From contig CAZSKX010000003.1 of the NCBI GenBank assembly GCA_964607655.1, forward strand, positions 4,160 through 68,159: DNA of 64,000 bases. The letters are read 5' to 3'. Below, piece by piece: positions 1,867 through 44,016 of this stretch; position 1 is the stretch's first letter; every line of letters begins with the position of its first letter. The notes under the pieces were generated by a model. The model saw only the letters and a list, made by a program, of their open reading frames with translations, had not been told where the DNA came from and searched no databases. A program made the translations under genes and the position numbers. This DNA is from an uncultured Candidatus Saccharibacteria bacterium (GTDB lineage Bacteria > Patescibacteriota > Minisyncoccia > Phycocordibacterales > Phycocordibacteraceae).

Positions 1867-2181
1867 TTAAGGGCCGGCTTTCTCGAGCCGAACGAGGACT
1901 CCTTCCTTCGTAAGTTCGATATGGGCACCAGGGATGATCTCACCCGTTACTAAGCAGGGGTAGTACCGAACCGGTTCGAGGAATCCCCCCGTCTGACGAA
2001 ACCATTCGACTCGGTGCCAGAGACCGTTATTGAATCCGGTCGTGCCGATCATCTCGGCGACCTGTTCCGCCGTCGCTAAAATCATCGCGCGCCCTCCTTC
2101 TGGTTTTATGAAATACCCTGCCAACCGCATTGTCAACATTGCAGGGGCAGTGGGAGAGGGTATGATATACGCAGCCGTCAC
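1867..2181 (-). CDS. small hypothetical protein; true start probably internal (e.g. Met near 2085)
   Basis: The ORF ends next to a hairpin terminator (about 1855-1885). It lies only 2 bp divergent from the start of the 2184 gene, so the N-terminus is likely over-called. I recognise no family. Confidence 0.3.
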   Translation of the reverse strand: MTAAYIIPSPTAPAMLTMRLAGYFIKPEGGRAMILATAEQVAEMIGTTGFNNGLWHRVEWFRQTGGFLEPVRYYPCLVTGEIIPGAHIELTKEGVLVRLEKAGP

Positions 2182-2183
2182 CC

Positions 2184-2885
2184 TTGCCTTTACTCATGCA
2201 AAACACGCACGAGCGAATTATCGTCTCTCTGGGCGGATCACTTATGGTCCCCGATCAGATCGATGTCGACTTCCTCAACCAGTTTCGTGATGTTGTCGTA
2301 AAAAAGATCAATGAGGGTTTCTCCTTTTGTGTCATTGTCGGCGGTGGGAAAACTGCGCGCCGTTATCAAGACGCTGCGAAGAATGCCGGCGAGCTCTCTC
2401 CGGCCGATCTGGACTGGCTCGGTATCCACGCGACACGCTTAAACGCACACCTTCTGCGCGTCCTCTTTAACGACGCTGCCTACCCACACGTGATCAAGAA
2501 TCCGGAGGCAGACATCGACATATCGAAGCCCCTCATCGTCGCGGCTGGCTGGCAGCCGGGATGTTCGACAGACTATGACGCGGTGTTGATCGCGAAGAAT
2601 ATCGGCTCACACCGCCTCGTTAATCTCTCGAATATTGACCACGTCTACGACAAAGACCCAAAGAGACACGGAAACGCAAAAAAGTTTGAAAAAATGTCGT
2701 GGCCAGAATTCCGCGCGATCATACCCGATCATTGGGACCCTGGCCTTTCCTCCCCTTTTGACCCCGTTGCTGCTAAAGAGGCCGAGACACTCGACCTTGA
2801 AGTCGCGATAATGAACGGCGCTCACCTCGACCGCTTCGAGGCCTATCTCGACGGTAAACCGTTCGTAGGAACAGTTATTTCTTAA
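2184..2885 (+). CDS. amino-acid-kinase family protein, UMP kinase-like (archaeal-type PyrH / isopentenyl phosphate kinase-like)
   Basis: N-terminal 'RIIVSLGGSLM' glycine loop and an overall AAK-fold pattern ('VIVGGGKTARRY'). 233 aa. Confidence 0.55.
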   Translation: MPLLMQNTHERIIVSLGGSLMVPDQIDVDFLNQFRDVVVKKINEGFSFCVIVGGGKTARRYQDAAKNAGELSPADLDWLGIHATRLNAHLLRVLFNDAAYPHVIKNPEADIDISKPLIVAAGWQPGCSTDYDAVLIAKNIGSHRLVNLSNIDHVYDKDPKRHGNAKKFEKMSWPEFRAIIPDHWDPGLSSPFDPVAAKEAETLDLEVAIMNGAHLDRFEAYLDGKPFVGTVIS

Positions 2886-3795
2886 CGTACCAGCGCGCGA
2901 GCGGGATGAGGAGTGGTGCGGCGAGAAGCACCGAAGAGTAGGTCCCTGCGACAACTCCCACGAGCATCACGAGAGCAAAGTCGCGTGTCGCCGCAGCTCC
3001 AAAGAGCGCGACCGCAGTAAGTCCAAGCGCTGTCGTCAGCGACGTGTTGATCGAGCGAGTGAAGGTCTCGCTGATACTCTTACCCACAGTCGTCTCAAAG
3101 GCCTCTTTATGATTGTTTTTCTCATTGTGTGCCAGGTGCTCGCGGACACGGTCGAAGACAACGATAGTGTCGTTGACTGAGTACCCAAGGAGGGCGAGTA
3201 GCGCTGTGACAAACAGTGCGTCAACTGATGCGCCCGTAAAGTATGCGAGGATGGCATAGAAGCCAGCCGGGATGATGAGGTCATGCACTAGCATTCCGAT
3301 GACGATAATCCCGTAGATCCAGCTCGGCACGGGACGCGACACCTTGCGGAAGGCGAAGGCGACATACAGAGTGATAGCGAGTGCCACGGCGAGAATAGCC
3401 CAGAGCGCCTTAACGGCAAACTGGTTACCAAATGCTGGTCCGACAGACGTGTAGGAAAGCTCCGTAGTTGAGGCACTTTTGCCGAGAGCGACAAGAACAG
3501 CAGAATGCTCCTCAGGAGTAAGCGAACGAGTACGAATATTCACCGCCTGTTCCCCTGCCTCACGCACTGAAACATCGCCGAGCGAAAGGGTATCGATCTC
3601 GGTCTTGATCGCATTCAGTTCTGGACGACCATTCGGATACTCAACCTGAATCAACGAGCCGCCAGTAAAATCGATACCGAGAGGCAGGCCCAGGTATCCG
3701 ATAGCCGCCATGGCGCCAAGGAGAATGACGCCCGTTATGATAAAGAGGAACTTCCGATATTTTACGATAGTCATATTAGATATTTTTGATGCCAC
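2875..3795 (-). CDS. secF: protein translocase subunit SecF
   Basis: 'LPLGIDFTGGSLIQVEY' SecF signature and a C-terminal multi-TM region. It overlaps secD by 20 nt. Confidence 0.85.
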   Translation of the reverse strand: MASKISNMTIVKYRKFLFIITGVILLGAMAAIGYLGLPLGIDFTGGSLIQVEYPNGRPELNAIKTEIDTLSLGDVSVREAGEQAVNIRTRSLTPEEHSAVLVALGKSASTTELSYTSVGPAFGNQFAVKALWAILAVALAITLYVAFAFRKVSRPVPSWIYGIIVIGMLVHDLIIPAGFYAILAYFTGASVDALFVTALLALLGYSVNDTIVVFDRVREHLAHNEKNNHKEAFETTVGKSISETFTRSINTSLTTALGLTAVALFGAAATRDFALVMLVGVVAGTYSSVLLAAPLLIPLARWYVKK

Positions 3796-5089
3796 TCCCT
3801 AGCAAGAAGTGCCAACGACCCTTCCCTTCTTCAGGCACGATCGCGAGCAGGTAAAGGCGTGAGATCGAGACCGCCGAAACAAATGAGGCGAGTGTGCCGA
3901 GCACGAACACCAGTGCGAAGCCCTTCACAATGCTCGAGCCGAGCCAGAAGAGAATGATGCCCGAGATAATCATGGTGAAGTGGCCATCACGAATCGCAGT
4001 CCATGCCCGTGCGAAGCCGAGATGCACCGCCTCCCGAGGAGCCTTACCATCACGAAGCTCTTCTTTGGTGCGTTCGAAGATGAGCACATTGGCGTCAACC
4101 GCCATACCCAGCGTGATAATGAGGCCCGCGATCCCCGACGCAGTGAGCGTAACGGGTATAAATTTAATGATTGCGAGCATAAACACGAGGTACTGAGCGA
4201 GGGCAACGACTGCAACAAGACCCGGCAAGCGATACCAGACAATCATAAAGAGACCAATCATCACGAAGCCAATGATGCCAGCTTTAACACTTGCATCGAT
4301 AGCGACCGCGCCGAGGGTTGGGCCGATAGCTGAACTACTTTCGAGCTCAATAGGTACCGGGAGCGCGCCAAAGTTTAAATTGTTTACCAAATCGCGCGCC
4401 TCAGCAGCGGTGAACTGACCATTGATGCTCGCTTGTCCTCCAGTGATGGGCTCTTGGATCACTGGTGCCGAGATCGGTTGGCCGTCGAGGAAGATCGCGA
4501 GCTGTTCTCCCACGTGCTCGGTCGTGATCTTAGCGAAGAGATCCGCGCCCTCCTGATTGAAGTTAAGGAGCACCTGTGGTGCCGAGAGCCCAGCAGTCGC
4601 GCCCGAACCGAACTGGAGTACTGCGTTTGAAAGATAGCGCCCAGTGAGTCCCGTAGATATAAACACTGCTTGAGTGGTCGTGCTGGTCTGCGTCGTAGTC
4701 GCGAGTTTGAACTCTAGCGTTGGCGTCTTACCGAGGGCGGCAACGGCAGCCTTGATATCAGTCACCCCTGGGAGTGCAACGATGAGTCGGTCCTCCCTCG
4801 TGCCCGACAACGCACTCGCCTGCTCAATCTGTACCAGAGGCTCCGCAACGCCAAAGAGGTTGACGCGGCGGTCGATCACGCCGTGAAGGGCTTCAAGAGC
4901 TTCAGCACGCTCCTCGAGAGGCGTCGCGCTCGTGTCAGCACGATAGACGAGCTCAGTACCACCGGCCAGGTCGAGACCAAGCTTAAAGGCATACCGGCTA
5001 TTTGGATTAGCCTGAGTCGACCAGACGAAATAAGCGAGTAAAAGCCCTGCAACAAGGGCAATGAGGGAAAGCACCCGATAGCGAGTCAT
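3776..5089 (-). CDS. secD: protein translocase subunit SecD
   Basis: N-terminal TM helix, a periplasmic domain, and a C-terminal 6-TM 'DANVLIFERTKEE' SecD/SecF-family motif. Confidence 0.85.
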   Translation of the reverse strand: MTRYRVLSLIALVAGLLLAYFVWSTQANPNSRYAFKLGLDLAGGTELVYRADTSATPLEERAEALEALHGVIDRRVNLFGVAEPLVQIEQASALSGTREDRLIVALPGVTDIKAAVAALGKTPTLEFKLATTTQTSTTTQAVFISTGLTGRYLSNAVLQFGSGATAGLSAPQVLLNFNQEGADLFAKITTEHVGEQLAIFLDGQPISAPVIQEPITGGQASINGQFTAAEARDLVNNLNFGALPVPIELESSSAIGPTLGAVAIDASVKAGIIGFVMIGLFMIVWYRLPGLVAVVALAQYLVFMLAIIKFIPVTLTASGIAGLIITLGMAVDANVLIFERTKEELRDGKAPREAVHLGFARAWTAIRDGHFTMIISGIILFWLGSSIVKGFALVFVLGTLASFVSAVSISRLYLLAIVPEEGKGRWHFLLGSGIKNI

Positions 5090-5106
5090 ACGGCAGAGTA
5101 TACCGG

Positions 5107-5901
5107 CTACCTAGTGCTTTGCAACTCGCTTTTTTCGCAGAGAACAAGCACATTCTCGAAGAGACATGCCACCGCAATGGGACCGACGCCGCCTGGGACA
5201 GGGGTGAAGATTGAGCATTTTGAAGCACAGGCGGGGTCGGCGTCGCCGACGATTACGCCATTCGATTCGCTCGTGGAAGCGTCGATGAGCACAACCCCCT
5301 CTTGAATCATGTCGGGCCTAATGAGGCCCGGAACCCCGGCTCCGGCGATGATGATGTCGGCTTCCTTGAGCGCCTGCGTGAGGTCTGTCTCGCGAGTCGC
5401 CACAGTCACTCGCGCGCCTTGTTCGGCAAGCCATGTTGCCGCAGGGGCGCCCACGAGAAATCCTGATCCGATCACTACCGCCTTCTTCCCCGCCACGCTC
5501 ACCTCTCCTCGTTCCAGAATCTCTTTTATCGCTCCGACTACGGGTGGCAAGAGAGCTCTTTGTTCGCCCTGCTCAAACTTCGCCCGCGCCGCCCGCGAGA
5601 GGACGTCAGCATCTTTGCCGAGTGGGATCGCGTTGCAGGCCGCCTGTGCATCGACCCCGTCAGGGAGCGGTAACTGAACAATGACGGCATCCGCGTCATC
5701 GTAGTCAGAAGGATACGCCCGCACTTCAAAGTCGCAACCTGCAAGCTCAGCACGAGCAGCTTTAATCTTTAAATACGATTTCGTCGCCCCGGTCTCCTCG
5801 CCCACAAGAGCAACAACCTTCGGACGTCGCTGCAGTTTCTCTGCACGCCCTTTGGCGCGAGCAAGCACCTCTGCCGCAATCGATTTGCCATCTATAATCA
5901 T
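5107..5901 (-). CDS. folD: bifunctional methylenetetrahydrofolate dehydrogenase/cyclohydrolase FolD
   Basis: 'MIIDGKSIAAEV...' FolD N-terminus and the Rossmann motif 'VVIGSGFLVGAPAA'. Confidence 0.85.
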   Translation of the reverse strand: MIIDGKSIAAEVLARAKGRAEKLQRRPKVVALVGEETGATKSYLKIKAARAELAGCDFEVRAYPSDYDDADAVIVQLPLPDGVDAQAACNAIPLGKDADVLSRAARAKFEQGEQRALLPPVVGAIKEILERGEVSVAGKKAVVIGSGFLVGAPAATWLAEQGARVTVATRETDLTQALKEADIIIAGAGVPGLIRPDMIQEGVVLIDASTSESNGVIVGDADPACASKCSIFTPVPGGVGPIAVACLFENVLVLCEKSELQSTR

Positions 5902-8444: not shown

Positions 8445-9574
8445 CCCCCGAAATACTCGTTGCCCCCTCGCTCGCGTGTGGCCCCACGCCCATGCCGAGC
8501 GAGCGACGCCACGACCCCGAGCGCTCCGAACTCAAGAACCAAATGGGAACCCCCCGAGCTCATGAACGGAATCGTGGTCCCCGTCACTGGCAGGAGCCCG
8601 AGACTGATCCCTGCGTGGATCGTTAGATGTGCAGAGAAGAGGATCAGCACACCGAGCGTAAAGAAGGTGTCGAAGTTGGTCGCGGCGGCTCGCGCGATCT
8701 GAGCCAGACGTGCCAACAGTAAGCCATAAATGGAGAGCAACAATGTAACGCCCACAAAGCCCCACTCTTCAGAAAAGGCGGCGAAGATGAAGTCCGTCTG
8801 ATACTCCGGCAAGAAGCGGAGCTTACTCTGTGTGCCATAGCCGATCCCTTTACCAAACCATTGTCCCGAGCCTACAGCGATCTGTGCCTGATACGCGTTA
8901 TAGCCCGCGCCATGGATATCATGCGCAGGATTGACGAAGGATATAATGCGCTGACGCTGGTATTCCTTAAGCCCCCCAAACCAGAGTGCTGTCGCGGCGA
9001 TAAGCGCGATGAGCCCAAGGGCCGCAAGATGCTTTTTTGAAATCCCTGATACCAACATCATCCCGAGCCACAGCGTCGAGAAAATGATCGCATTACCCAT
9101 ATCAGGCTCAACAACGATAAGACCGATGAAAACGAGGGCATATAGACCCGAGACAATAATGTGCCGAATGTCTCCGATCTCTACGTGACGCCGCGAGAGA
9201 TACTTCGCTAAGAGCATGATAAGCGAGAGCTTCGCTAGGTCTGCCGGCTGAAAGGAGAACCATCCAAAAGAGAACCACGCGCGCGCGCCCATGACAGGAT
9301 CAGCAAACAACAGGAGCCCAATGAGGAGCGCGGTCGACACGAGGTACAACGTCATAATGACCGGTGTCCGCCGGATAAACCGGACGTCGATATTCGCACA
9401 CGCTAGGTAGAGGCCGACCGCCACAAAAAGCCAAACGAGCTGTCGGGAGGCGAGCGATGCGCCCTGACCGAAAGTGTTCATGGTGACGACCCCGATCAAG
9501 GTGAGCACCACGGCTGGCAGGACCAAAGTCCAGTCCCCGAGCCACGTTACGAGACGACGATTTTCAAGACTCAC
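8441..9574 (-). CDS. SEDS-family peptidoglycan polymerase FtsW/RodA
   Basis: 10-TM protein with FtsW/RodA/SpoVE motifs: 'GAGYNAYQAQIAVGSGQWFGKG' and 'SKLRFLPEYQTDFIFAAFSEEWG'. Confidence 0.8.
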   Translation of the reverse strand: MSLENRRLVTWLGDWTLVLPAVVLTLIGVVTMNTFGQGASLASRQLVWLFVAVGLYLACANIDVRFIRRTPVIMTLYLVSTALLIGLLLFADPVMGARAWFSFGWFSFQPADLAKLSLIMLLAKYLSRRHVEIGDIRHIIVSGLYALVFIGLIVVEPDMGNAIIFSTLWLGMMLVSGISKKHLAALGLIALIAATALWFGGLKEYQRQRIISFVNPAHDIHGAGYNAYQAQIAVGSGQWFGKGIGYGTQSKLRFLPEYQTDFIFAAFSEEWGFVGVTLLLSIYGLLLARLAQIARAAATNFDTFFTLGVLILFSAHLTIHAGISLGLLPVTGTTIPFMSSGGSHLVLEFGALGVVASLARHGRGATRERGGNEYFGG

Positions 9575-10338
9575 GGCAGCGGCACGACGGGCGTCACTTC
9601 AACCCGCACACTCGAGGTCGCGAAGGGCTCGTTCCAGGTAAAGATCGCTGTCGCACTCTTCTGAGGATCAATGCGCGAGACGATCGTGCGAGAAGCGGCG
9701 ATCACATTTCCCGTACTTGAGTCACGAACAAACACGACAACGGGGAGCCCCAAGATCGGTACGAGACTCGAGTTAGTTAAAAGCGCGCTTACTCGCGGAG
9801 CTTCAGGAACACCGCCGATAGGAGCTACGACAACCTTCGGCAAAATGCGTGGGTCAGAAGGCGTGGCAACCCAGCGCGGCGAGGACGCGTCTACGGTAAG
9901 AAATGCACGCGCAATCCCTTCCCCTTCGGTCGCTACACCTGGAATAAAAATCGGCACCACCGTATGCGGCGGTAGATCGAGAGACCCCGAGAATTCACGC
10001 ACCTTCTCTCCTGTAGTCGAGTGGAGCGTTACGCGAAATGGAACATTTTTCGCAGATGCTTCACCATTTTTATTTTCTACTGACGAAATGAGATCCACTC
10101 GTCCGGTCTTGTTACGCACCAGACTAGTGAAAATAGTGGTGGGCGCTGCCGCAGTAGAGGTGCACACTGCTGAGCAAGGCCCTCCGCAGTCGATCCCCTG
10201 CTCTTCTTGATTCCGCTTCCCGTCCTGACAGGTCGGCGCGGCGTAGAGATTGGTGAAGTAGAAAATAACTACGCCAATAAGCGCCGCCAATATAAGCACC
10301 CCGATTACCGCAAACCTCATCCGTGTTGCCCAATGCAT
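9571..10338 (-). CDS. hypothetical membrane-anchored/secreted protein (N-terminus trimmed to Met before the TM anchor)
   Basis: The ORF-track N-terminus (to 10587) runs through the two tRNA-like genes. An internal Met followed by a hydrophobic anchor 'MRFAVIGVLILAALIGVVIFYF' is the plausible start. Confidence 0.45.
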   Translation of the reverse strand: MHWATRMRFAVIGVLILAALIGVVIFYFTNLYAAPTCQDGKRNQEEQGIDCGGPCSAVCTSTAAAPTTIFTSLVRNKTGRVDLISSVENKNGEASAKNVPFRVTLHSTTGEKVREFSGSLDLPPHTVVPIFIPGVATEGEGIARAFLTVDASSPRWVATPSDPRILPKVVVAPIGGVPEAPRVSALLTNSSLVPILGLPVVVFVRDSSTGNVIAASRTIVSRIDPQKSATAIFTWNEPFATSSVRVEVTPVVPLP

Positions 10339-10397
10339 GGGGTAAGTATACCAAAATGAAACGCCGCCGAGATCCCTAAGGATCCGGCGGCAAGACA

Positions 10398-10526
10398 TGG
10401 TGGGAGTAGACGGATTTGAACCATCGACCTCACGTTTGACCCATCGGCGCTCACTGTTGTTATGGCCACTTACAACAACGAACTTAATCGACGGACGTGC
10501 GCTCTGACCAACTGAGCTATACCCCC
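10398..10526 (-). tRNA. tRNA-like gene with an ~52-59-nt intervening sequence in the anticodon arm (possible anticodon GUC)
   Basis: Reverse complement: GGGGGTA-TA-GCTCAGTTGGTCAGAGC-G-CACGT[59 nt]ACGTG-AGGTC-GATGGTTCAAATCCGTC-TACTCCC-A-CCA. It has canonical acceptor, D and T arms and an encoded CCA. The two anticodon-stem halves (CACGT/ACGTG) are separated by 59 nt. Confidence 0.45.
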
Positions 10527-10533
10527 ACAACAT

Positions 10534-10643
10534 GGTCGGGATGGCGGGGTTTGAACCTGCTGAACCGTTCGATACTATGTTCCCCATTCGCGGCTGCAGT
10601 AGAAGAACGGCGTATACGGCGACATCGATGATGTCTCACCCCG
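10534..10643 (-). tRNA. tRNA-like gene, atypical (D-loop without GG; ~40-nt insertion between the anticodon-stem halves)
   Basis: Reverse complement: CGGGGTG...GCCGT[47 nt]ACGGT...GCAGGTTCAAACCCCGC-CATCCCG-A-CCA. The acceptor and T arm are recognisable, but the gene is 110 nt long. Confidence 0.3.
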
Positions 10644-10690
10644 ATAGCGAAATACCTGAACTGCGCGTACCCTATCACTTCTGTAAAAGA

Positions 10691-10730
10691 AACGCAAAAC
10701 CCCGCGCTTTAGGGCGCGGGGTTTTGCGTT
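10691..10730. terminator. perfect 17-bp hairpin (bidirectional terminator) between 5S and the tRNA-like genes
   Basis: 'aacgcaaaaccccgcgc ttta gggcgcggggttttgcgtt'. Confidence 0.7.
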
Positions 10731-10740
10731 CAAGTGCTCA

Positions 10741-10856
10741 GTTCTGGCGGCTAGCTACTCTCCCTGCCGGTAAAGGCAAGTACCATCGCCGCTAGTGGGC
10801 TTAACTTCCGAGTTCGGAAAGGGATCGGGTGTGACCCCACCGCCAAGCCACCAGAA
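10741..10856 (-). rRNA. rrf: 5S ribosomal RNA
   Basis: The reverse complement 'TTCTGGTGGC...CCCGATCCCTTTCCGAACTCGGAAGTTAAGC...GAGAGTAGC...GCCGCCAGAAC' matches the bacterial 5S consensus and its helix 1 pairing. Confidence 0.85.
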
Positions 10857-11253
10857 CCGAACACTCGAAAGTGTTTCGGTTTTGATCTACGAATATATGC
10901 AAAGGTAATTATTTCAAAGCACAGACAACAACTGTCTGATATACAGAGTTCCGCACAAGAGACTGGACATATTAGTACACCTCGACTCCACGCCTCGCGG
11001 CGCTTCCATCTGGTGCCTATCAACGTAATCATCTCTTACGAGTCTCATAACGATTCCTAATCTTGGAGCACGCTTCCCGCTTATATGCTTTCAGCGGTTA
11101 TCGCAACCCGACATAGCTACCCAGCAGTGCTCTTGGCAGAACAGCTGGTAGACCAGAGGTCAGTTCATCCCGGTCCTCTCGTACTAGGGACAACCCTCCT
11201 CAAGAATCAACGCCTGTAGTAGATAGGAGACCAACCTGTCTCACGCATTTTGT

Positions 11254-11672
11254 TTTAGCCCACATTACTGTGGGGATCGGACTGTAACTTACTCCGGTCT
11301 GGAGCATCAACATTCAGTCTCTACGGGCTTGTCATCGTGAACTTCGCGAAGGGCTCGAGAGTAATCTCGAGCAAAAGAACGTCGATCCGGTGACGGATCA
11401 GGTGCGCACTGATCCGTCACCGGGAAGAGAGGCGCTGTACAGCGCGGCCCTTCGCGAAGTTCACGATTAGATTCCCTCGGTATTACCCACGTGGGGCTCT
11501 ACCGATATCAGTTGATTTGTTCATACGCATTCCTGCGTATGACCGCCGTGATTATTTGTTGGCTTCTACTTTCTCTTTCATAGACGAAAAAACATTTCTG
11601 ATTTGACAACAATCTTCGATGAGGATTCAGACGGTGCGAGTGTCGACACAGGAGTGTCAACAGCCGCACGGT
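11254..11672 (-). other. ~420-nt intervening sequence in 23S domain V (E. coli ~2590-2596 equivalent), no ORF
   Basis: The exon homology 'GGTACGCGAGCTGGGTTCAGA' / 'GCGTGAGACAGGTTGGTCTCCTATCTAC' is interrupted. The insert contains a nested inverted repeat (11336-11465). Confidence 0.5.
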
Positions 11673-12323
11673 CTGAACCCAGCTCGCGTACCTTTTTAAA
11701 TGGCGAACAGCCATACGCTTGGGACCTTCTCCAGCCCCGCGCTAAGGTGAGCCGACATCGAGGTGCCGAACTCCGCCGTCGCTATGGACGCTTGGGCGGA
11801 ACTAGCCTGTTATCCCCAGGGTAACTTATATCCGTTAATCTCTGGCCGCATCTAAGGCGTACCATCGGTTCACTAGACTCTGCTTTCGCATCTGCTTGGG
11901 ATGTCCCCCTCGCAGTTAAGCCCGCTTGTGCTCTTACACTATCGCCACGGTTTCCATTCGCGGCTAGCGGACCTTAATAGACTCCTCCGTTACTCTTTAG
12001 GAGGATAGCGCCCCACCAAAACTACCCGTCACGCACGGTCCCCATGTGGATCCCACATAGGTTAGGCACTGTACATTGCAAGAACGGTATTTCACTGACG
12101 ACTCCACGCCACCCGAAAGCGACGCTTCAAAGTCTCCCGTCTATTCTACGCATGCAACACGCAGGGCCAATACGAAACTGTAGTAAAGCTCCTGGGGTCT
12201 TTTCGTCTAACTACAGGTATCCGGCATCTTCACCGGAAGTGCATTTTCACCGAGCAAGTCCTCGAGACAGTTTCCCAGTCATTACACCATTCGTGCACGT
12301 CGGAACTTACCCGACAAGGAATT

Positions 12324-12523
12324 ACGCTCTTCGATTCCTTTTAGCACGCGAAGGACCATATCTTATCCCTTCTTGGCGAAGGGTTTTGACGTATGGCCTC
12401 TCATTTGAGTCAAGTTGGACGACGTACGGATTACTCCATACGCAGGTAACTTGGCGTATTTTTATTCTGTTTACTCCTACAATCGTCCTAGTCCTTCCGG
12501 ACGCGACTCGCGTCGTGTCCGGA
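12324..12523 (-). other. ~200-nt intervening sequence in 23S domain IV (E. coli ~1917-1925 equivalent)
   Basis: The conserved 'AACTATAATCGTCCTAAGGT' / 'ATTCCTTGTCGGGTAAGTTCCGAC' is interrupted. The insert contains the long hairpin 'ccggacgcgactcgcgtcgtgtccgg'. Confidence 0.45.
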
Positions 12524-13347
12524 ACCTTAGGACGATTATAGTTATCGCCGACATTCACCGGGGCTTACACAGTCCAGCATCACACCGAAGTATGGTACCG
12601 CCCGTGGTTGACCTTCCGGCATTGGTCAGGTGTCACCCCCTATACATCCTCTTACGAGTTCGCAGGGAGCTGTGTTTTTGGTAAACAGTTGCCAGGAAAA
12701 CTTTCGCTGCGGCCGCTCTTGCGAGCGGCAGGCCTTATCCCTAAGTTACGGCCGCTTTTTTGCCGAGTTCCTTGAGGACCTCTTACTCGTTCATCTAGGT
12801 CTTCTCGACCAGACCACCTGTGTCGGTTTGCGGTACGGTCGCACCTATGGTTAATGCTTAGAAGTTTTTCTTGAAACCGCGCTCTCTGCTCTTTCTCCCT
12901 CCGTAGAAGGAAATTGTACCGACGCTCGGGATAATGCGTACCGGATTTGCCTAGTACACGCCCTCACGCAAGTAACTCCAATCCAATAAGAAGCAGCAGA
13001 TACAGCCGTTCGTCACTCCATAGCCCATAAATACGGTCAGGGAATATTAACCCTGTGTCCATCGGGTGCGGCTCTCGCCATCCCCTTAGGCCCGACTAAC
13101 CCTCAGTTGATCACCATAGCTGAGGAAACCTCGGTCTTTCGATGTGCGGGGTTCTCACCCGCATTGTGGTTACTTGTACCGACATTCTCACTTCTGTACG
13201 CTCCACGCTGGGTTACCCCTTACGCTTCAGTGCGAACAGAACGCTCTCCTACCGCGTGCATTCCAGCGAAGGAATGCACACCCGCAATTTCGGCACGACA
13301 TTTAACCCCGATCATCTTCGGCGCAAGGACTCTCGATTAGTGAGCTG

Positions 13348-13390
<43 letters not shown>

Positions 13391-13966
13391 AACTGTCTGT
13401 GAGTCCTCACTTCCTTGTGATGTACTTAATGTCGATTTTGGGGCCTTAATTGGCGATCCGGGCTCTTCCCCTCTCGATCGATGGAGCTTCGCCCCCACCT
13501 TCTAACTGCCACTCGGGCAATGGGTATTCGGAGTTTGATAGGAACCACGAGATTGCTCCCTGTTGGTCCCTTCCAGTGCTCTACCCCCCATTACACTTAA
13601 TAGTGACGCCAGCCCAAAAGCTGTTTCGGAGAGAACCAGCTATTCCCAGGTTCGATTAGCTTTTCACTCCTTACCACAAGTCATCCCAACGCGTTGTACG
13701 ACGAACGGGTTCGGGCCTCCATCTGTCTTTCGACAAACTTCACCCTGCTCATGGTAAGCTCACCTGGCTTCGGGTCGTATATATCCTACCAACGCGCTAT
13801 TAACACTCGGTTTCCCTACAGCTCCGCCCCGGAAGGGCTTAGCTACGCAAGATATATCCACTCGTCGGCTCATTCTTCAATAGGCATGCCGTCACGGATG
13901 CAAGCATCCGCTCCGACCCCTTGTAAGTACACGGTTTCAGTTCTATTTCACTCCCCTCTCGGGGTG

Positions 13967-14007
<41 letters not shown>

Positions 14008-14851
14008 TAGGATGTATTTAGCCTTACCGGTTAGTTCCGGCAGATTCACTCGAGCTATTCATGTCTCGAGCTACTCAAGAATACGAACAAGAGTCGTCAT
14101 GCATTTCGCATACGGGGCCATTACCCTCTAGGGCGCTGCTTCCCAACAGCTTCTGCTATACAGACGATTGGTAACTCTTTCCATACAAGTATGGTGTTCG
14201 CATCTTACAACCCCGCTATCCGAAGATAGCGGTTTGGGCTTTTCCCTTTTCGCTCGCCGCTACTTGGGGTATCACGAGAGTCGCTTTCAATGTGCACAAA
14301 CATAATGCGCACACTGAAAGCAACTCGTATTGTTCTCTTTTCCTCTCGGTACTGAGATGTTTCACTTCCCGAGGTTCGCTCCACACAGGCGTTACCCCGT
14401 GGGTTCCAGTTCAAGCTGGAGGGTTTCCCCATTCGGACATCTACGGATCACAGGCTACAAACCGCCTCCCCGAAGCTTTTCGCAGGTTAGTCACGTCCTT
14501 CATCGCCATCCTAAGCCTAGGCATCCACCGTGCACTCTTAATTGTCTCTCATGCGGAGACCTATATACCACAATCATTATTTGCACTTTGATTACCCCGT
14601 CGCTTTCGCAACGAGGCTTTCATTTACCTTTGCTACCCAGCCTTGCTGGCTCACCAACAAGACTGGGCTATTCGTATGTCAAATGTCACGTGTCCCCTCG
14701 AAACGAAAACCGCCCCCTCGGGGCGGTTCGCGTTTACAAACGCGCGGCATTTCTGCCTATCCCCGGATTAGGTTGGTTTGTAATTTCGTAGACACGTAGA
14801 ACCGAGTATATAGGAGGCGCTAAACCCTGTCAACTTAACCCCTCATCTAAC

Positions 14852-36300: not shown

Positions 36301-36864
36301 TCAAAGCTCTGAGGCACTAATGCCTTGATTAATTCTTTGTATGTATGCAGCCCGCTCCTTGAGAACCTGCTGTAAAAACGATTCTTCGTATCCATTTGGG
36401 TTTACCGCATCTCCCGCATCAAGGCCAAGCAGGCCGAGCAGTCTCAAGACTGCCAGAAGCTCGATTGCTTCATGAAGTTCGACTGGTCGGTCACGCAATG
36501 CGGCAAGGAATCCCCTGACCACCTCGAACACACGTTCGTCACGCGCCTCGTCCGCAACGAGCCTCAAGAGCAGGCCGGTCACGCGCGCAACACGCTCACG
36601 CCCCGGGTGAGGTAGCACTTTGGCCCATTGTTCTTCCAGCACTGCCCCGACGACTCGCCATCCCTCCTTTCCTTGCACGAGCATCACCTCACTTTCAGAA
36701 AGCGTCGTCAGGCCATGAGCAAGTTTCGCCCCTGGCTTTCTGATCCCCTGGGCTCGTGCACGCACCAGTCCGACCGTCGGTGTAAGTAGCGTAACAAGTG
36801 AGTTGGCTTCGCCGAGCGAGGTACGCGCAAGAACAATCCCTCGCGTATCGTATTTATGCCGCAT
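36301..36864 (-). CDS. recO: DNA repair protein RecO (short form)
   Basis: N-terminal OB fold '[36 protein letters not shown]'. Confidence 0.55.
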
Positions 36865-39800
36865 CGCGTACGAGGTTAAACCGTTTCTCTCCCGTCGAGA
36901 GTGTTACCCCGTACTTCCCTCCTTCGACCACTTCCGTACGTACTTTGTCGGTAGGAGCCAGCTGCTCTTGCTTACGCGCGTCTGCAATCGCACGGGCGAA
37001 CTCTCGCTCATCGCCCTCTTGTACAAGCTCGGGGGTAAGCACCGTGTCGAGCGAAAGCGTCTCGCCCACGCTTACCTGCTTCACATTGATCTCCTCGGCG
37101 AGCACCGCAGCGAGCTCGAGCGGAAGTCCTCCATTGATGGTGACGCTCGCGAGCGGCTGGCGCACCTTGATCCCTGCCTTCTGGCGCAGCTGGAGCGCTT
37201 CTGAGGCAAGTGCCCGAACGCGAGCCATCTCGCCGACAAGATCGACCTTCGGTGCTGTTTTGAAAAGTTTCGTGAGCGTAAACGCCTCCCGCTTAGGCTC
37301 TGGCCACGCAGCTAAGTGCACACTGATCGGATCGCTCTCTTCACGCACCGAGCGGAAGATCTCTTCGGCGAGGAAAGGTGAGAAGGGGGCGAGTAGAAGC
37401 GCGCATGTCCGAAGCGTCGTGCGAAGGGTCTCGAGCGCCGCACTATCACCCTCTCGAGCTCGATCGCGCACTCGCCGCACATACCACTGCGACAAGTCTT
37501 CGGCGAGTGCTGCCACTCCTCGCGACGCTTCAAAGAGCTGATAGTGGTCGAGAGCCTCCGTCACTTCGTAGACGGCCTTCTCTAACCGCGCCTCCATCCA
37601 CTGGTCAAGGATCGTAGGGGTTGCTTCGACACGTGGAACCTCCTTAAAGAGGTCGTAAAACTTTGTACTGTTGTCGAGCCACGAGAGCACCTTCGCGGCC
37701 TCCTTCACCGTCTTCGGGTCAAAGTTCTTCGAGTCACCCGCCTGGCTCACGCTGTACATCCAGAAGCGGAGCGCATCGACACCGTACCGGTCGATCTCAT
37801 CCATCGGGTCAGTCACGTTCCCTTTCGACTTACTCATCTTCTGACCGTTCGCGTCGAGGAGATGGCCGAGACAAATCACGTTTTTAAATGGCGCTCCGCG
37901 TCCAGCGAGTACGCCGACGGCAAGGAGCGTGTAGAACCACCCACGCGTCTGGTCGATCGCTTCAGAGATAAAATCCGCAGGATACGCTACCTGCTTCATA
38001 TACTGCTCGAGCGTTTGCTCCCCGCGCTCTTTCGCCGCCTGAGCGAAGGGCATCGCGCCGGAGTCAAACCATACGTCCATCACCTCTTTAACTCGGCGGA
38101 GCTCAGTCCCCTTCTCGCTCACGAGCACCACGTCGTCGATATACGGCCGGTGCAGATCAAGCTCATAATTTTCATTGTGTGGCAGCGGAACGAAGTCAAA
38201 CTCGGCGACTTCTGCGAATTTAGCGCTACTAATGACCTTATTTAGGATCTCATTTGCCGCAATTGCGTCAGCTCCTTCAACGAGGACCGCGAACGACTCA
38301 AAGGCCACGCCGTGCGTAACGATAAGCACCTTTTCGTTCTTCGTCTTCTCCTCTAGTTCGTATACAAAAGATCCCAATCGGTTTTTGGCGTCTGCGTAAC
38401 TCTCTTCACCCCCCGGAACTAGATCGAGGTAGCCGTGAGTCTTCTTCCACGCCCAAAAAGCCTCGTGGGCACCCGGCTTGTTCTCTCCATCAAACTCTCC
38501 GAAATCAAACTCCCGTAGCCGGTCATCGTACGCGATCGCTTCTTTAGGGAAACCGAGACTCGTCGCAACCATCTCTGCCGTCTCTTTGGTGCGCAGGAGC
38601 GGCGAAGCGTAGATCTTTGTGATGCCCATCGTTTTAAGTTCTTCGATACTTGCCCTCACCTGCTCCTTCCCTTTTTCAGTCAAACCATTTGGCGTGCCGA
38701 TCTTCGAATCAAAAAACTTCTTTGCGTTCCCTTCGGCTTCGCCGTGACGCATTAGGAAGTACTGGTTGCCCGATTTCTTTGTGTGCTTCTTAAGTTCGTC
38801 GATTGAACCAGCAAGCGCCTGTTCGCTCCCGTCAGCACTCATCCAGACCGGAAGCGGTGTCCCCCAGTACCGCTCGCGACTGATCGCCCACTCCTTTGCG
38901 TTCGTGAGCCACTCGCCCATGCGCCCGTCGCGAATATGTTCTGGTTCCCAGTTGACCTTCTTGTTTTCTGCCACGAGCGTTCCTCGCAGGTCGTGAATGC
39001 GGATATACCACGAGTCCCGTGCGTAGTAGATGAGGCGAGTCTTGCAACGCCAGCAGAAGGGGTAGGTGTGCGTGTACGATTCTTTTTTAAATAAAATGCC
39101 CTGAGTCTGGAGATTCTTAAGGATCTCGACCGCCGTACTTTCTTCGATCACCGCACGCCCGGTAAGGAAGTCGGTTCCTTCGACATACTTCCCTTCAGGA
39201 TTTACCAAGTGAACCTTCGGTAGGCCGCGATCGCTGCCGAGGTCGAAGTCTTCTTGGCCATACATCGGCGCGATGTGCACGATGCCCGTACCCTCGTCAG
39301 TCGTGACGAAATCAGCATCATATACCGCATACGCGTGCTTAAACTTCGCGCGTTCTTCTTCGCGCGCGACCTCCTGGGCAAAGGCATAGACCGGCTTGTA
39401 GCGCTTCCCGATGAGCGCCTCCGCGAGCACATCCCCTGTGCGCTTCCACTCGGCTCCGAGCACCGCCTCAGCGCGTGCATCTGCGAGGATGACGTGCGTG
39501 CCGTCCTTCTCGTATTTACCGTATGAAATATTCTTTCCGATCGCGAGCGCGACGTTCCCGGGAAGCGTCCACGGCGTCGTGGTCCAGGCGAGCAAGAAGG
39601 TGCCCGGCTCACCCATGAGCTCAAACTTCACCATCACGGTGATGTCCTTCACCTCCTCGTAGCCCTGCGCGAGCTCGTGCGACGAGAGTGAGGTTCCACA
39701 GCGCGAACACCACGGCACCACGCGGTAGTCCTTATAGAGCCGGCCCTCCTTCGCGATATGCGCCATGATGCGCCACACCACCTCGATGTACGAGTTGTCG

Positions 39801-40249
39801 TAGGTGAAGTAGGCGTTCTTTGCGTCGACCCAGTAGCCGATGCGTCGCGTTACGTTCGCCCACAGGTCGATATAGGTCGCTGCCGTCTCACGACACTTTT
39901 TATTAAATGCGGCGATGCCGTACTTCTCGATATCTGGCTTACCGGAAAACCCAAGCTCCTTCTCAACCTGTAGCTCGACCGGGAGTCCGTGCGTATCCCA
40001 GCCCGCGCGACGGGGGACGTGATACCCACGCATCGTCTTATAGCGTGGAATCGCATCCTTGAAAGCGCGCGTCTCGAAGTGGCCCATGTGCGGCTTACCG
40101 TTTGCACCCGGCGGACCTTCGTAGAAAACAAACTCGCCCATGGGCGACGGCTTCTCGAGTGACTTCTCGAAGATCCTCTCACGCTCCCAAAACTCAAGCA
40201 CCGCCTCTTCGCGCTTGGCTGTTTCTGACTTCTCGGGCGCGTCGGCCAT
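36854..40249 (-). CDS. ileS: isoleucyl-tRNA synthetase carrying an inserted histidine-phosphatase (PGAM-family) domain
   Basis: HIGH region '[13 protein letters not shown]', editing-domain '[11 protein letters not shown]', '[14 protein letters not shown]', and 'KMSKSKGN'. Between '[13 protein letters not shown]' and 'HRPYIDD' lies a roughly 190-aa segment '[11 protein letters not shown]...[11 protein letters not shown]...LIVTHG', a His-phosphatase fold. Confidence 0.9.
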
Positions 40250-42578: not shown

Positions 42579-43307
42579 TCATGGGTTTTTGAGTGCTGCT
42601 TGCAATGTATCCTTACTGTAACGCTCGGGCACATACCCGTCAATCGAGCGTATGTTTGCTTCATAACGCAGGTCACTCCCATCAATATTCTTAACGATCA
42701 GATCGACTGTGATTCGATCCCCAAACTCCGATTTGAGCTTGTTAACATTTTCTCGTGCTTGAAAGTATTGTTCGACAAACGAATCTCTCGGTATCACCCG
42801 ACCCTCTCGCTGCTCACGTGCCTGAGCGAACTTCCAAGCCTGCAACGGGTCTTGATACACATAGAGGATCTGTACGAGCCGCTCCTTCTCTAGACTTCGC
42901 TCGATGTTCTCTCGAGCTCGCTCAAGGTTGGAGAGTGTCCCATCAAAGACGTAGCTCTGATGATTATGGAGGGCCAGGTCCTGCATCTTATCGGCAAGAA
43001 TAGACGTCGCACCCTGAAAGAGGCGTGAATTCGATCCGTTATATTCTTTGAACTCCTCTCGCAACTCATCTGCGTCTATCCGCAATACGGCATCCCTCCG
43101 CCCTGCGAGCCGCTCAATAAGCCGGAATGATGACTCGGTTTTACCCGCCCCTGGCGATCCCGCCATAAAGACCGAGACCGGCTGGGCGTCGGGCGGAAAG
43201 AGATTGATATCGGTGCGCCTCTTGGCAATAGCTACTTTATTTTTGTTCGCCTTTGCAAAAGCCAGCGCTTCTTCTTGGATCCGCCGGTCCTCTTCGGTCA
43301 TGCTCAC
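42579..43307 (-). CDS. zeta-toxin-like P-loop kinase (PF06414-like)
   Basis: Walker A 'FMAGSPGAGKTE' in a roughly 240-aa zeta/PezT-like architecture. Confidence 0.6.
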   Translation of the reverse strand: MSMTEEDRRIQEEALAFAKANKNKVAIAKRRTDINLFPPDAQPVSVFMAGSPGAGKTESSFRLIERLAGRRDAVLRIDADELREEFKEYNGSNSRLFQGATSILADKMQDLALHNHQSYVFDGTLSNLERARENIERSLEKERLVQILYVYQDPLQAWKFAQAREQREGRVIPRDSFVEQYFQARENVNKLKSEFGDRITVDLIVKNIDGSDLRYEANIRSIDGYVPERYSKDTLQAALKNP

Positions 43308-43384
43308 ATTCTACTCCAGGCCCCACCACTTTCCCGCCCCGTCTTCCACCTCCAGACTGTGCTCTTAGTCTTAAGGGTCATAAG

Positions 43385-43972: not shown

Positions 43973-44016
43973 ATATCTAGTCTCTAGACTTTTTAAGTCA
44001 CATCCAGAAAGTCCCT

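Follow-up and report, generated by a model that had tools for sequence, protein, structure and literature searches.

Two adjacent tRNA-like genes whose anticodon-stem halves are separated by short insertions raise the question of whether their RNAs are spliced into decoding tRNAs or are used, unspliced, in some other way. We analysed these genes, TL1 and TL2, at 10398-10643 of a 64,000-nucleotide stretch of DNA (hereafter, the window). The original prediction had placed both genes and their inserts there, as we confirmed for the minus strand, and had offered two readings: either the inserts are short introns that are processed in a new way, or the genes are tRNA-like elements of a non-canonical kind. 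The latter reading was supported by our analysis, whereas the former was left mostly unsupported. With a probability of about 0.5, we propose that TL1 and TL2 are unspliced, non-decoding tRNA-like RNAs with an extended anticodon arm, released by tRNA-processing enzymes.

Layout and structure of the TL1-TL2 cassette

TL1 and TL2 form a two-gene cassette of 246 bases at the 3' end of a 23S-5S rRNA unit, in a Patescibacterium that resembles Kaiserbacteria. The features of the locus, in the order of transcription, are as follows.

14551..10954, minus strand: 23S rRNA (Rfam LSU_rRNA_bacteria, 2311.9 bits)
10742..10855, minus strand: 5S rRNA, last gene of the 23S-5S unit (Rfam 5S_rRNA, 82.5 bits)
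10692..10730, minus strand: G+C-rich hairpin AAAACCCCGCGCC..GGCGCGGGGUUUU with a U-run, between the 5S gene and the cassette
10669..10677, minus strand: candidate extended -10 element TGATAGGGT (TGnTAnnnT), recognised by conserved sequence
10643..10533, minus strand: TL2, tRNA-like gene of 111 nt (sequence, fold and homologs)
10615..10569, minus strand: TL2 insert, 47 nt between the stem halves GCCGU and ACGGU
10526..10398, minus strand: TL1, tRNA-like gene of 129 nt (sequence and Rfam tRNA model)
10494..10436, minus strand: TL1 insert, an irregular hairpin of exactly 59 nt between the stem halves CACGU and ACGUG
10459..10470, minus strand: motif AGUGGCCAUAAC of the apical loop of the TL1 insert, unchanged in the distant relative L005
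10353..10391, minus strand: hairpin GCCGCCGGAUCC-UUAG-GGAUCUCGGCGGC with a U-run (sequence and relatives)
9571..10338, minus strand: downstream 255-aa membrane protein with the motif CxDGxxNxxExGxDCGGxC, outside the RNA cassette

The 23S gene of the window is about 670 nt longer than the model and contains hairpin-rich insertions. The hairpin 3' of the 5S gene resembles an intrinsic terminator; it was listed as terminator-like by a terminator scan, is visible in alignments, and is near-invariant in the window and in the related loci L001 and L002. L005 and L013 lack this hairpin, and there the cassette lies directly 3' of the 5S gene. The element TGATAGGGT may be an extended -10 promoter of the cassette: the window, L001 and L002 share a longer, conserved form of it, TGnTA(G/T)GGTAC, and a strict two-hexamer promoter scan reported none at this site. 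The hairpin at 10353..10391 is probably the terminator of the cassette. A nearly identical hairpin is found 3' of the cassette in L001 and L005, and a simple terminator scan did not include the site among those it listed. It is followed by TATACT and then by the ATG of the next gene. The 255-aa membrane protein, which has no Pfam family, served us as the anchor for retrieving syntenic loci. Among the window, L001 and L002, the cargo varies within near-invariant flanks, namely the upstream hairpin, TGnTAnGGTAC and the probable terminator.

TL1 derives from an ordinary class I tRNA gene. Its acceptor stem (GGGGGUA/UACUCCC), D arm (GCUC-AGUUGGUCA-GAGC, with GG in the loop) and T arm (GAUGG-UUCAAAU-CCGUC) are accompanied by a 5-nt variable loop, discriminator A73 and an encoded CCA. 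These arms had been described as perfect; 'fully paired' is the better term, because wobble pairs (G4.U69 in the acceptor stem, one U.G in the T arm) are present. TL1 matched the Rfam tRNA model from end to end with 53.7 bits (E = 9.6e-9 for the window; gathering score, 29) and passed a canonical cloverleaf test based on the gathering score and four arms. In the Rfam alignment, a local insertion of 58 nt is confined to the anticodon loop. The predicted distance of 59 nt between CACGT and ACGTG and the encoded CCA proved exact.

The minimum-free-energy fold of TL1 kept the cloverleaf and placed the insert coaxially with the anticodon stem. A 6-bp helix (CCGUCG/CGAUGG) stacks on that stem, with GUCAA as a 5-nt 3' bulge; beyond the internal loop AUUAA/GC comes a 12-bp helix that ends in a loop of 11 nt. 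Helices of 5+6+12 bp, though interrupted, make up a near-continuous helix of about 23 bp. Within the apical motif AGUGGCCAUAAC lies a palindrome, UGGCCA, and some proteobacterial tRNA-Ser genes have a D loop identical to the motif. Scans of viral contigs yielded tRNA-Ser D arms and one unrelated match, and the insert motif gave only chance matches in coding DNA. A nested or permuted second tRNA within the insert, as the D-loop-like motif had suggested, was rejected, for no acceptor or anticodon arms could be drawn. Pairing of the TL1 loop with 5S rRNA was rejected as well, since the 10/12 match in the window is not conserved in L005 and lies at chance level.

An arm of this kind could belong to an intervening sequence like those of rRNA, with RNase III cutting the helices and no ligation, so that each molecule would consist of two pieces kept in contact by the acceptor stem and whatever helices remain. 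The near-continuous helix of TL1, the oversized and hairpin-rich 23S gene of the same genome, and the relative L003, in which two tRNA genes lie within a 23S insertion bracketed by a long stem, are in keeping with that possibility. However, the helices are broken by the bulge and the internal loop, and the invariant apical loop suggests that the tip of the hairpin is used, not discarded. We regard cleavage by RNase III as quite unlikely.

TL2 is further removed from a canonical tRNA. It has a 7-bp acceptor stem (CGGGGUG/CAUCCCG, C1-G72) with one G.U pair, followed by A73 and CCA, and a T arm (GCAGG-UUCAAAC-CCCGC) with one A.C mismatch. A 6-bp hairpin with a 3-nt loop replaces the D arm, so the fold consists of the acceptor stem, two hairpins and the T arm. 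The absence of GG from the D loop and the 47-nt spacing of GCCGT and ACGGT agree with the original prediction. The TL2 insert contains a 4-bp helix (AUAC/GUAU) with CGA as a 3-nt 3' bulge, then a 3x3 internal loop and, farther out, a 7-bp helix and an apical hairpin. TL2 had no Rfam match at E <= 10 and no ARAGORN call; we nevertheless consider it real, because L001, L005/L006 and L013 have homologs at the same place that share its acceptor stem, T arm and ACCA. Four lineages in all retain these parts, and pair 6:67 shows a compensated change; the D and anticodon regions vary freely. The L001 homolog has no insert and only a 4-nt loop (GCCG-UCAA-CGGU), the L005 homolog has no anticodon arm, and the L013 copy carries two indels.

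A metagenome scan with the pattern of the TL2 3' half (GCAGGTYCRAAYCCYGCCRYCCCGACCA) identified ordinary bacterial tRNA-Pro genes in 105 of the 123 matches listed. The other 18 had no full tRNA-Pro call, being att-site-type fragments or genes cut by contig ends, and no new TL2 homolog appeared among the matches listed. As judged from sequence, TL2 descends from a tRNA-Pro gene. The 3' halves of tRNA-Pro genes are common attachment sites, and the cassette might be a scar of mobile-element integration, that is, integrase debris at such a 3' half. Some of the 18 matches look like 3' fragments at island ends, and the cassette content turns over while the flanking hairpin is common to distant lineages. 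On the other hand, each acceptor stem has kept its two strands, which pair; no integrase, transposase or insert repeat was found in the window, where the inserts are single-copy; and blastn revealed no phage similarity. An origin as integration debris appears very improbable. A mobile repeat or MITE was rejected on the grounds of the single-copy inserts, which showed only chance-level short matches in the window.

Both genes thus keep the 'top half' of a tRNA, namely the acceptor stem, T arm, A73 and encoded CCA, and TL1 also keeps a normal D arm. Where the anticodon loop would be, both carry a structured extension that prolongs the anticodon stem.

Splicing and decoding

Inserts of 47-59 nt are too short for group I or group II introns. 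As the criterion for group I, we used a catalytic core (P3-P9) and a length of roughly 180 nt or more, and the inserts fall short of it. No group I, group II or small-ribozyme Rfam match was found in 10300-10760 at E <= 10, nor, at the same threshold, did small self-cleaving ribozymes or other Rfam families appear in the region. In Patescibacteria, group I introns interrupt tRNA-Asp and tRNA-Asn at 35/36 (Nakagawa et al., mSystems 2026, PMC13011429). Those of tRNA-Asp are 184-256 nt long, have a core that matches or resembles that of group I, were shown to self-splice, and leave the loop CUGUCAC (U33, C38) together with G73 (PMC13011429, Table S3). TL1 and TL2 come from the same phylum, are likewise interrupted in the anticodon loop and missed by standard finders, and ARAGORN in intron mode suggests Asp(GUC) for TL1; they differ in the length of the inserts, the lack of a match to RF00028 and a residual loop that would be non-canonical.

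ARAGORN missed TL1 in the default mode; in the intron mode, it called TL1 a tRNA-Asp(GUC) with a 52-nt intron and the loop CCGUCAA but left TL2 uncalled. The GUC...GUC repeat of TL1 permits several boundaries, and none of those giving CCGUCAA has both U at -1 and a terminal G. TL1 had been predicted to be Asp-like with an unusual C33. GUC and C33 indeed recur at every splice choice (loop CCGUCAA or CCGUCGA), but A38 and A73 would remain after excision, and of the Asp identity set (G73, G34-U35-C36, C38) only GUC would be present. For the TL1 ortholog of L005, ARAGORN called AUA (loop UCAUAAA), and excision at 37/38 would produce CCACGGA (ACG) versus CCGUCGA in the window. The predicted anticodon is apparently not shared between the orthologs: GUC in the window, AUA or ACG in L005, depending on the boundary. 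Excision at 37/38 would give TL2 a 7-nt loop, AUACGCA, with U33 and C37. Removal of the TL2 insert would restore no decoder, to judge by the homologs without it: that of L001 has a 4-nt loop, and that of L005 lacks an anticodon arm. Across all homologs found, the anticodon region is non-canonical or missing.

In archaea and eukaryotes, tRNA introns with a bulge-helix-bulge motif are cut by EndA/TSEN and the exons are joined by RtcB. The inserts of TL1 and TL2 are similar to these introns in size, lie at or near 37/38 and pair with the anticodon; they differ in that the motif is incomplete in both genes and the spliced products would be abnormal tRNAs. We defined the motif as two 3-nt bulges on opposite strands, a 4-bp helix apart, at the exon-intron junctions, and the full motif is absent from both inserts. 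TL1 instead combines a 6-bp helix with a bulge of 5 nt and an internal loop of 5x2. TL2 shows the 3-nt 3' bulge and the 4-bp helix exactly at 37/38, a point in favour of the intron reading of the original prediction; this is only half of the motif, because a 3x3 internal loop stands in place of the second bulge, and such a half motif has a chance of 1.9% per element, with four elements inspected. The search for an RNA-splicing endonuclease or RtcB, proposed along with that reading, detected neither domain (Pfam) among the scanned ORFs of at least 90 aa in the 64-kb window. In the literature, no bulge-helix-bulge tRNA introns have been reported in bacteria.

If the inserts were nonetheless introns of a new, short kind, a relaxed bulge-helix-bulge endonuclease and an RtcB-type ligase would cut at or near 37/38, TL1 losing about 52 nt and TL2 about 46 nt, and the anticodons would be GUC and ACG. 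The stem halves would be joined as ...CACGUCCGUCAAACGUG... or ...CCGUCGAACGUG..., and the products would be about 77 nt (TL1) and 64 nt (TL2) long. The ARAGORN call, the pairing of an anticodon-loop insert with anticodon nucleotides as in archaeal introns, and the half motif and U33-containing loop of TL2 agree with splicing. So do two observations outside the locus: other Patescibacterial tRNAs with canonical anticodon loops have D-loop inserts of 40-55 nt, and some relatives of the clade reportedly live on archaea (PMC12281837). The abnormal helix and bulges of TL1, its spliced form with C33, A38 and A73 but without Asp identity, the different anticodon, or a 6-nt loop, of the L005 ortholog, the missing D loop and C37 of spliced TL2, and the outcome of the domain search all argue against it. 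Splicing by such machinery is, in our view, unlikely.

Conservation and turnover of the cassette

The TL1 ortholog is present in L005/L006, and L005, though a distant relative, retains the insert. TL1 of the window and L005 are 72% identical (insert, 69.5%; tRNA body, 74.6%), as compared with 87.7% for the 5S gene and 47% for the neighbouring protein. In an N-padded structural alignment of the two sequences, 97.4% of the pair cells were paired versus 32-57% in slid controls. Thirty-six of the 38 pairs are kept, and six of them have changed on both sides; when an equal number of substitutions was placed at random, at least 36/38 pairs were kept in 0/20,000 runs. Within the insert, 15/17 pairs are kept, 3 by changes on both sides (at least 15/17 by random placement, P = 0.013). 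Since the insert is known from only two independent lineages, the support from covariation in the insert by itself is modest (P about 0.01). The extension of TL1 is conserved in a distant relative, and its stems are maintained.

As the mark of a non-decoding tRNA-like RNA, we took selection on a tRNA-like acceptor/T-arm module together with an anticodon region unfit for decoding, and the comparisons among homologs point to both.

A TL1 covariance model (R1) run against 393 kb of Patescibacterial loci retrieved no further full-length homolog. A scan of the genome collection via the neighbouring protein gave 80 syntenic loci, among which only L013 has a TL2-like gene after the 5S gene. The cassette is absent from most relatives (L218, L003/L004, L007/L008, L212-L214 and most of L009-L088), and its content differs completely among genomes whose neighbouring proteins are 88-91% identical. 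Because of this absence and complete turnover, the cassette must be regarded as dispensable and unstable.

Oddly built tRNA-like genes recur within the rRNA operons of related bacteria. Non-canonical ones lie between 23S and 5S in L019, L020, L050, L069, L074 and L075, all from related Parcubacteria. The tRNAs with D-loop inserts mentioned above belong to L050, L069 and L074, a hint that the phylum may remove or tolerate such inserts.

These distributions bear on the possibility that TL1 and TL2 are decaying pseudogenes, former distal tRNAs of the rRNA operon (tRNA-Pro and another) that acquired neutral insertions in the anticodon loop and are being lost. The patchy distribution with losses in close relatives, the content turnover beside a well-conserved protein, the A.C mismatch in the T stem of TL2, the indels of the L013 copy and the many other tRNA-like genes found in a degenerate state in the clade's rRNA operons would all be consistent with decay. 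Against it stand the TL1 insert, about as conserved as the tRNA body where the flanking protein is only 47% identical; the retention of TL1 pairs, including the six double changes, beyond all random runs; the acceptor stem, T arm and ACCA of TL2, kept in four lineages with a compensated change; and the near-invariant putative expression signals around the cassette. Patescibacterial genomes are streamlined, and we also counted this against decay. We judge the pseudogene explanation rather unlikely.

A proposed non-decoding role and its parallels

We return to the reading that TL1 and TL2 are non-decoding RNAs. Where the candidate extended -10 promoter is present (window, L001 and L002), they would be transcribed from it, and the layout of L005 and L013 suggests transcription together with the rRNA operon. 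RNase P would release the 5' end and the usual tRNA 3'-end enzymes the 3' end. We infer such release because the parts retained by the two genes are those that these enzymes recognise; RNase P needs as its substrate no more than a minihelix made up of acceptor stem, T arm and RCCA. The RNAs would be neither spliced nor used to read codons. The tRNA body may act as a scaffold for processing and stability and as punctuation for the rRNA transcript, and the extended arm with its invariant loop may be offered to a putative partner.

In bacterial rrn operons, with their spacer and distal tRNAs, and in the punctuation model of mitochondria, tRNAs serve as punctuation in polycistronic rRNA transcripts; such classical punctuation tRNAs are also working tRNAs. 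TL1 and TL2 are similarly situated in or at the end of an rRNA unit and keep the features read by RNase P and the 3'-end enzymes, but they have lost the anticodon loop and gained extensions, and in the window a terminator-like hairpin separates them from the 5S gene.

The pseudo-tRNA tRNAOther of Bacillus cereus has a normal tRNA size and an ordinary anticodon arm. The gene, tRNA-shaped like TL1 and TL2, reportedly has no function in translation, as proposed for these two, and flanks a genomic island (Rogers et al. 2012, PMC3399842). TL1 and TL2 differ from it by their structured insertion and show no sequence relationship to it.

TL1 and TL2 also resemble YrlA and other bacterial Y RNAs and the tRNA-like domain of tmRNA as non-decoding mimics of the acceptor/T-arm elbow. 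They belong to neither group by the tests applied. The YrlA model (RF02553) scored 14.8 bits (E = 3.4) against a gathering score of 69; the tRNA-like module of YrlA is circularly arranged and has its ends at the anticodon side. The marks of a tmRNA would be a tRNA-Ala-like domain with G3:U70 and a tag reading frame within the RNA. ARAGORN made no tmRNA call by default and a spurious one only at the -ps60 setting, and the G3:U70 pair is absent, the G.U pairs being at 4:69 in TL1 and 5:68 in TL2.

An artificial parallel is the tRNA scaffold, reportedly engineered by Ponchon and Dardel for expressing recombinant RNAs. There, as in TL1 and TL2, a hairpin replaces the anticodon loop of a tRNA body; in the scaffold, this serves to have the RNA processed and stabilised by the cell like a tRNA. 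To our knowledge, no natural counterpart of the scaffold has been described. A follow-up paper on the scaffold has been published (PMC3753655).

A broader version of the intron hypothesis is that Patescibacteria have a class of structured, non-group-I tRNA insertions of about 40-60 nt that are removed by protein machinery, for example a relaxed bulge-helix-bulge endonuclease and a ligase. TL1 and TL2 would then contain tRNA introns of a kind known from archaea and eukaryotes and be the first such case in bacteria. We find this hypothesis unlikely. Members of such a class would be situated in the anticodon loop (TL1, TL2, L005, L075) or the D loop (L050, L069, L074). If the hypothesis were true, bacteria could no longer be said to have self-splicing introns only.

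On the non-decoding reading, elements of this kind are missed by tRNA finders or mislabelled in intron mode as intron-bearing tRNAs, and estimates of the tRNA complement of the phylum are therefore distorted. The position of tRNA and tRNA-like genes of the clade between 23S and 5S, and inside 23S, suggests that tRNA-processing enzymes help to mature its insertion-rich rRNA transcripts. If TL1 and TL2 are non-decoding RNAs as proposed, streamlined Patescibacteria retain tRNA-shaped modules in their rRNA operons for a purpose other than decoding, and the two genes would be a natural counterpart of the engineered tRNA scaffold.

Gene order and folds of the cassette

Downstream of the 23S-5S rRNA genes, two adjacent tRNA-like genes, TL2 and TL1, form a cassette in the following order.

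14551..10954, minus strand: 23S rRNA gene (Rfam)
10855..10742, minus strand: 5S rRNA gene (Rfam)
about 10730..10692, minus strand: G+C-rich hairpin with a U-run, between 5S and TL2
10643..10533, minus strand: TL2, followed by a 6-nt spacer and TL1
10526..10398, minus strand: TL1 (Rfam tRNA match)
10391..10353, minus strand: second hairpin with a U-run, 3' of TL1; likely terminator of the cassette
9571-10338, minus strand: gene for a 255-aa membrane protein, 3' of the second hairpin and followed by ftsW

TL1 folds into a full cloverleaf, with the acceptor stem GGGGGUA/UACUCCC (including G4.U69), GG in the D arm, the variable loop AGGUC, the T arm GAUGG-UUCAAAU-CCGUC, and A73 followed by an encoded CCA. 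Its anticodon-stem halves, CACGU/ACGUG, are exactly 59 nt apart. The Rfam tRNA model matched TL1 end to end (53.7 bits) with a 58-nt insertion within the anticodon loop. ARAGORN did not call TL1 in default mode; in intron mode, as suggested with the original prediction, it reported tRNA-Asp(GUC) with a 52-nt intron and the loop CCGUCAA. TL2 has a 7-bp acceptor stem (C1-G72), A73, CCA, a 6-bp/3-nt hairpin in place of the D arm, stem halves GCCGU/ACGGU 47 nt apart and one A.C mismatch in its T arm; it was called by neither the Rfam tRNA model nor ARAGORN, intron mode included. The original prediction had described two tRNA-like genes interrupted in this way, and the 59-nt and 47-nt gaps, the arms and the CCA were confirmed on the sequence.

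The 255-aa protein belongs to a conserved Parcubacterial membrane-protein family, with no Pfam family, that shares the invariant motif CxDGxxNxxExGxDCGGxC (among 120 homologs listed). In the homologs listed, its gene always has ftsW as a neighbour, and in many genomes it lies directly 3' of the rRNA operon. Because homologs of the neighbouring proteins bear Parcubacteria, Paceibacteria or Kaiserbacteria names, the organism is placed among the Patescibacteria, in the Parcubacteria/Paceibacteria group and near Candidatus Kaiserbacteria. The 16S gene (218-1683) is unlinked from 23S-5S (10742-14551): it shares their strand, but nine protein genes and ~9 kb separate it from them on the downstream side. 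Such separation is reported to be common in Patescibacteria (bioRxiv 10.1101/705046). Elsewhere in the window, the minus strand encodes a 1131-aa class I aminoacyl-tRNA synthetase of the Ile/Leu/Val/Met type (36854-40249) with a His_Phos_1 (histidine-phosphatase) insertion at residues 498-661; a small defence/toxin cluster (42579-46286) of a zeta toxin, a Cthe_2314-like HEPN protein, a GmrSD + HNH domain protein and an EcoRI-like adenine methyltransferase; and a 163-aa ORF (57184-57675) with a weak HNH_3 endonuclease match, directly upstream of tRNA-His (57104-57179). dnaA is located at 58393-59763.

The slot in related bacteria and the ancestry of TL2

Employing homologs of the 255-aa protein, we fetched syntenic loci (L numbers) and compared the slot between 5S and the protein gene.

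Contents of the slot (identity of the 255-aa protein in parentheses)
Window: TL2 and TL1, both insert-bearing
L001 (91%): insert-less TL2 of 63 nt (GCCG-UCAA-CGGU) and a second, different tRNA-like gene, its 8-nt loop being AUUUAAAC
L002 (88%): one tRNA-like gene only; it has G4.U69, a stem of 6 bp and UGGAAAC as its loop (G33)
L005/L006 (47%): 57-nt TL2 with nothing but an acceptor stem, a single hairpin, a T arm and ACCA, then a clear TL1 ortholog, insert included
L013 (40%): TL2-like gene whose D arm is normal, with a hairpin of 7 bp and a 6-nt loop
L003/L004, L007/L008, L212-L214, L218, most of L009-L088: empty

The cargo is wholly different in the window, L001 and L002, while its surroundings hardly vary: on one side the hairpin after 5S and a TGnTAnGGTAC element, on the other the terminator and the TATACT of the next gene. 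The TGnTAnGGTAC element looks like an extended -10 promoter, a candidate that a simple promoter scan did not list. L005 and L013 have no hairpin between 5S and the cassette, so in these two the rRNA operon appears to end with the cassette. A near-identical hairpin, GCCGCCGGAUCC..GGAUCUCGGCGGC, lies 3' of the cassette in the window (10353-10391), L001 (684-722) and L005 (1020-1058), in the last despite a flanking protein of just 47% identity. In L218, which is closer to L005 and lacks the cassette, the terminator differs. Cassette and hairpin seem to travel together. That the cassette represents integration scars is, in our estimate, very improbable. In L007 (300-760, between 23S and the membrane-protein gene), sequences like the 5' and 3' ends of 5S distantly flank the Rfam 5S match (477-590), which suggests insertions in, or partial duplication of, that 5S gene.

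A degenerate pattern of the TL2 T arm, 3' acceptor strand and ACCA was searched against metagenomes; among the matches listed, 105 of 123 were ordinary tRNA-Pro genes. C1-G72 with A73 is the signature of bacterial tRNA-Pro. At the level of sequence, these results established that TL2 is derived from a tRNA-Pro gene. Four lineages of TL2 have kept the acceptor stem (U6-A67 changed to C6-G67), the T arm and ACCA, the parts that constitute the minimal substrate of RNase P, CCA and 3'-end enzymes, while the remainder varies freely. The replacement of U55 with C in L001 and L005 fits the loss of its D-loop partner.

tRNA-like genes and insertions in rRNA operons of the clade

Other Parcubacteria carry tRNA or tRNA-like genes between 23S and 5S, many of them non-canonical: loops with C33 or G33 (L050, L074, L020) and loops of 10-12 nt (L019, L020). 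A tRNA-like gene of L075 has an insert in the anticodon loop. Structured D-loop inserts of 40-55 nt occur in genes with canonical 7-nt anticodon loops at L050:486-617 (CAU), L069:272-391 (GAC) and L074:803-924 (GAU), and these genes were missed or mislabelled by standard finders. Should no other gene serve these anticodons, the inserts would have to be either tolerated or removed. Spacer arrays of one to four genes, many with C33/G33, oversized loops or shortened arms, were found at L019:870-1190, L020:1113-1294, L050:409-880, L074:704-924 and L075:1023-1120.

In Ca. Kaiserbacteria CG10 (L003), the 23S gene (2056-5714) contains a ~260-nt insertion (3414-3674), enclosed by a long stem, that harbours tRNA-Lys(CUU) (3455-3529) and, at 3547-3622, a tRNA-like gene whose 8-nt loop reads AUUUAGCC. 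This insertion is absent from the 23S gene of the window, which at 3598 nt (10954-14551) is ~670 nt longer than the 2925-nt model. The latter gene has hairpin-rich insertions of ~196 nt (~12328-12524) and ~340 nt (~11328-11668) at non-conserved sites, and shorter insertions too, for example one of 54 nt close to model position 229; not one of them matched group I or contained a tRNA-like element. From the non-canonical spacer genes and the 23S insertions of L003 and the window, tRNA-shaped modules in insertion-rich rRNA transcripts are therefore a feature of the clade. tRNA-like genes whose 8-nt anticodon loops begin AUUUA, or whose notional anticodon is UUA ('tRNA-Stop'), recur beside or within rRNA genes of Parcubacteria (L001:604-678, L003:3547-3622, L019:955-1027). 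Another Patescibacterium has a group I intron within its 23S gene (L075:392-594; Rfam 50.6 bits, just at threshold).

The inserts and the nature of TL1 and TL2

In the predicted fold, the TL1 insert prolongs the anticodon stem with a 6-bp helix, CCGUCG/CGAUGG, that includes the notional anticodon; GUCAA forms a 5-nt bulge on the 3' strand, and an internal loop (AUUAA/GC) then leads into a 12-bp helix with 11 nt in its loop. The predicted TL2 insert starts with a 4-bp helix and a 3-nt 3' bulge; a 3x3 internal loop separates these from a 7-bp helix, which is topped by a small apical hairpin. Both inserts are single-copy within the 64-kb window.

To compare two independent lineages bearing the TL1 insert, we aligned TL1 of the window and L005 by structure. 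Identity was 72% overall (insert 69.5%, tRNA body 74.6%); by comparison, the 5S genes are 87.7% and the flanking proteins 47% identical. Pairs formed in 97.4% of TL1 pair cells, versus 32-57% with slid partners; both sides had changed in six pairs (three within the insert), and two pairs were broken. When the observed number of substitutions was placed at random, at least 36 of 38 pairs were kept in 0 of 20,000 trials; for the insert alone, P = 0.013 (at least 15 of 17 kept). The covariation argues strongly for selection on the whole TL1 molecule and, with two independent lineages only, is suggestive of selection on the insert. The TL1 insert loop AGUGGCCAUAACA and the motif UUAAGUU are invariant between the two; this loop includes the palindrome UGGCCA and has the same sequence as the D loop of some proteobacterial tRNA-Ser genes. 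Against these conservation statistics, decay into pseudogenes is unlikely, even though patchiness, turnover and small defects would agree with it.

One reading raised by the original prediction was a novel kind of intron in an Asp-like tRNA. Rfam models of group I introns, group II introns and small ribozymes had no match in the cassette region, and neither insert contains a complete bulge-helix-bulge motif. The TL2 insert shows half of one exactly at 37/38, as do 1.9% of shuffled inserts, with four elements inspected. A new protein-dependent intron is favoured by this half motif, the insert position, the pairing of the anticodon with the insert and the tRNAs with D-loop inserts elsewhere, but its spliced products would be non-canonical and the anticodon is not conserved. 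Every excision leaves C33 in TL1, which also has A38 and A73; the loop is CUGUCAC, with G73, in those tRNA-Asp genes of Patescibacteria whose group I introns have been validated (PMC13011429 Table S3). Excision from the L005 ortholog would yield another anticodon or a 6-nt loop. Orthologs with common acceptor features (G4.U69, A73) but differing anticodons are, judged by sequence, unlike a decoder, and insert-less TL2 homologs are without an anticodon loop altogether. The Asp-like reading is thus not supported. We regard a protein-dependent intron as improbable, and rate the chance of a genuinely new class of intervening sequence in bacterial tRNAs just as low. The search for an RtcB or splicing-endonuclease domain, proposed for the genome, was run on ORFs of at least 90 aa in the 64-kb window and found none, weak evidence from part of a genome. 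An RNase III-type intervening sequence, cut out with no ligation, appears slightly less probable than the protein-dependent intron.

The other alternative of the original prediction, non-canonical tRNA-like elements, is borne out by the tRNA-like folds and their ancestry, by the loss of a usable anticodon loop and by structure-preserving evolution. The likeliest reading, with a probability of about 0.5, is that the cassette encodes two non-decoding tRNA-like RNAs. TL1 and TL2 would be transcribed together with the rRNA operon or just after it, be released by RNase P and the 3'-end machinery, and stay unspliced. They may act as processing and stability modules, and as scaffolds that display an extended arm whose conserved loop binds a putative partner. 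The nearest parallels are tRNA punctuation in rRNA operons and in mitochondria, the pseudo-tRNA of B. cereus (PMC3399842) and the tRNA scaffold engineered for other RNAs (PMC3753655). TL1 and TL2 would belong with known kinds, the pseudo-tRNAs and tRNA-like RNAs, as a variant of these.
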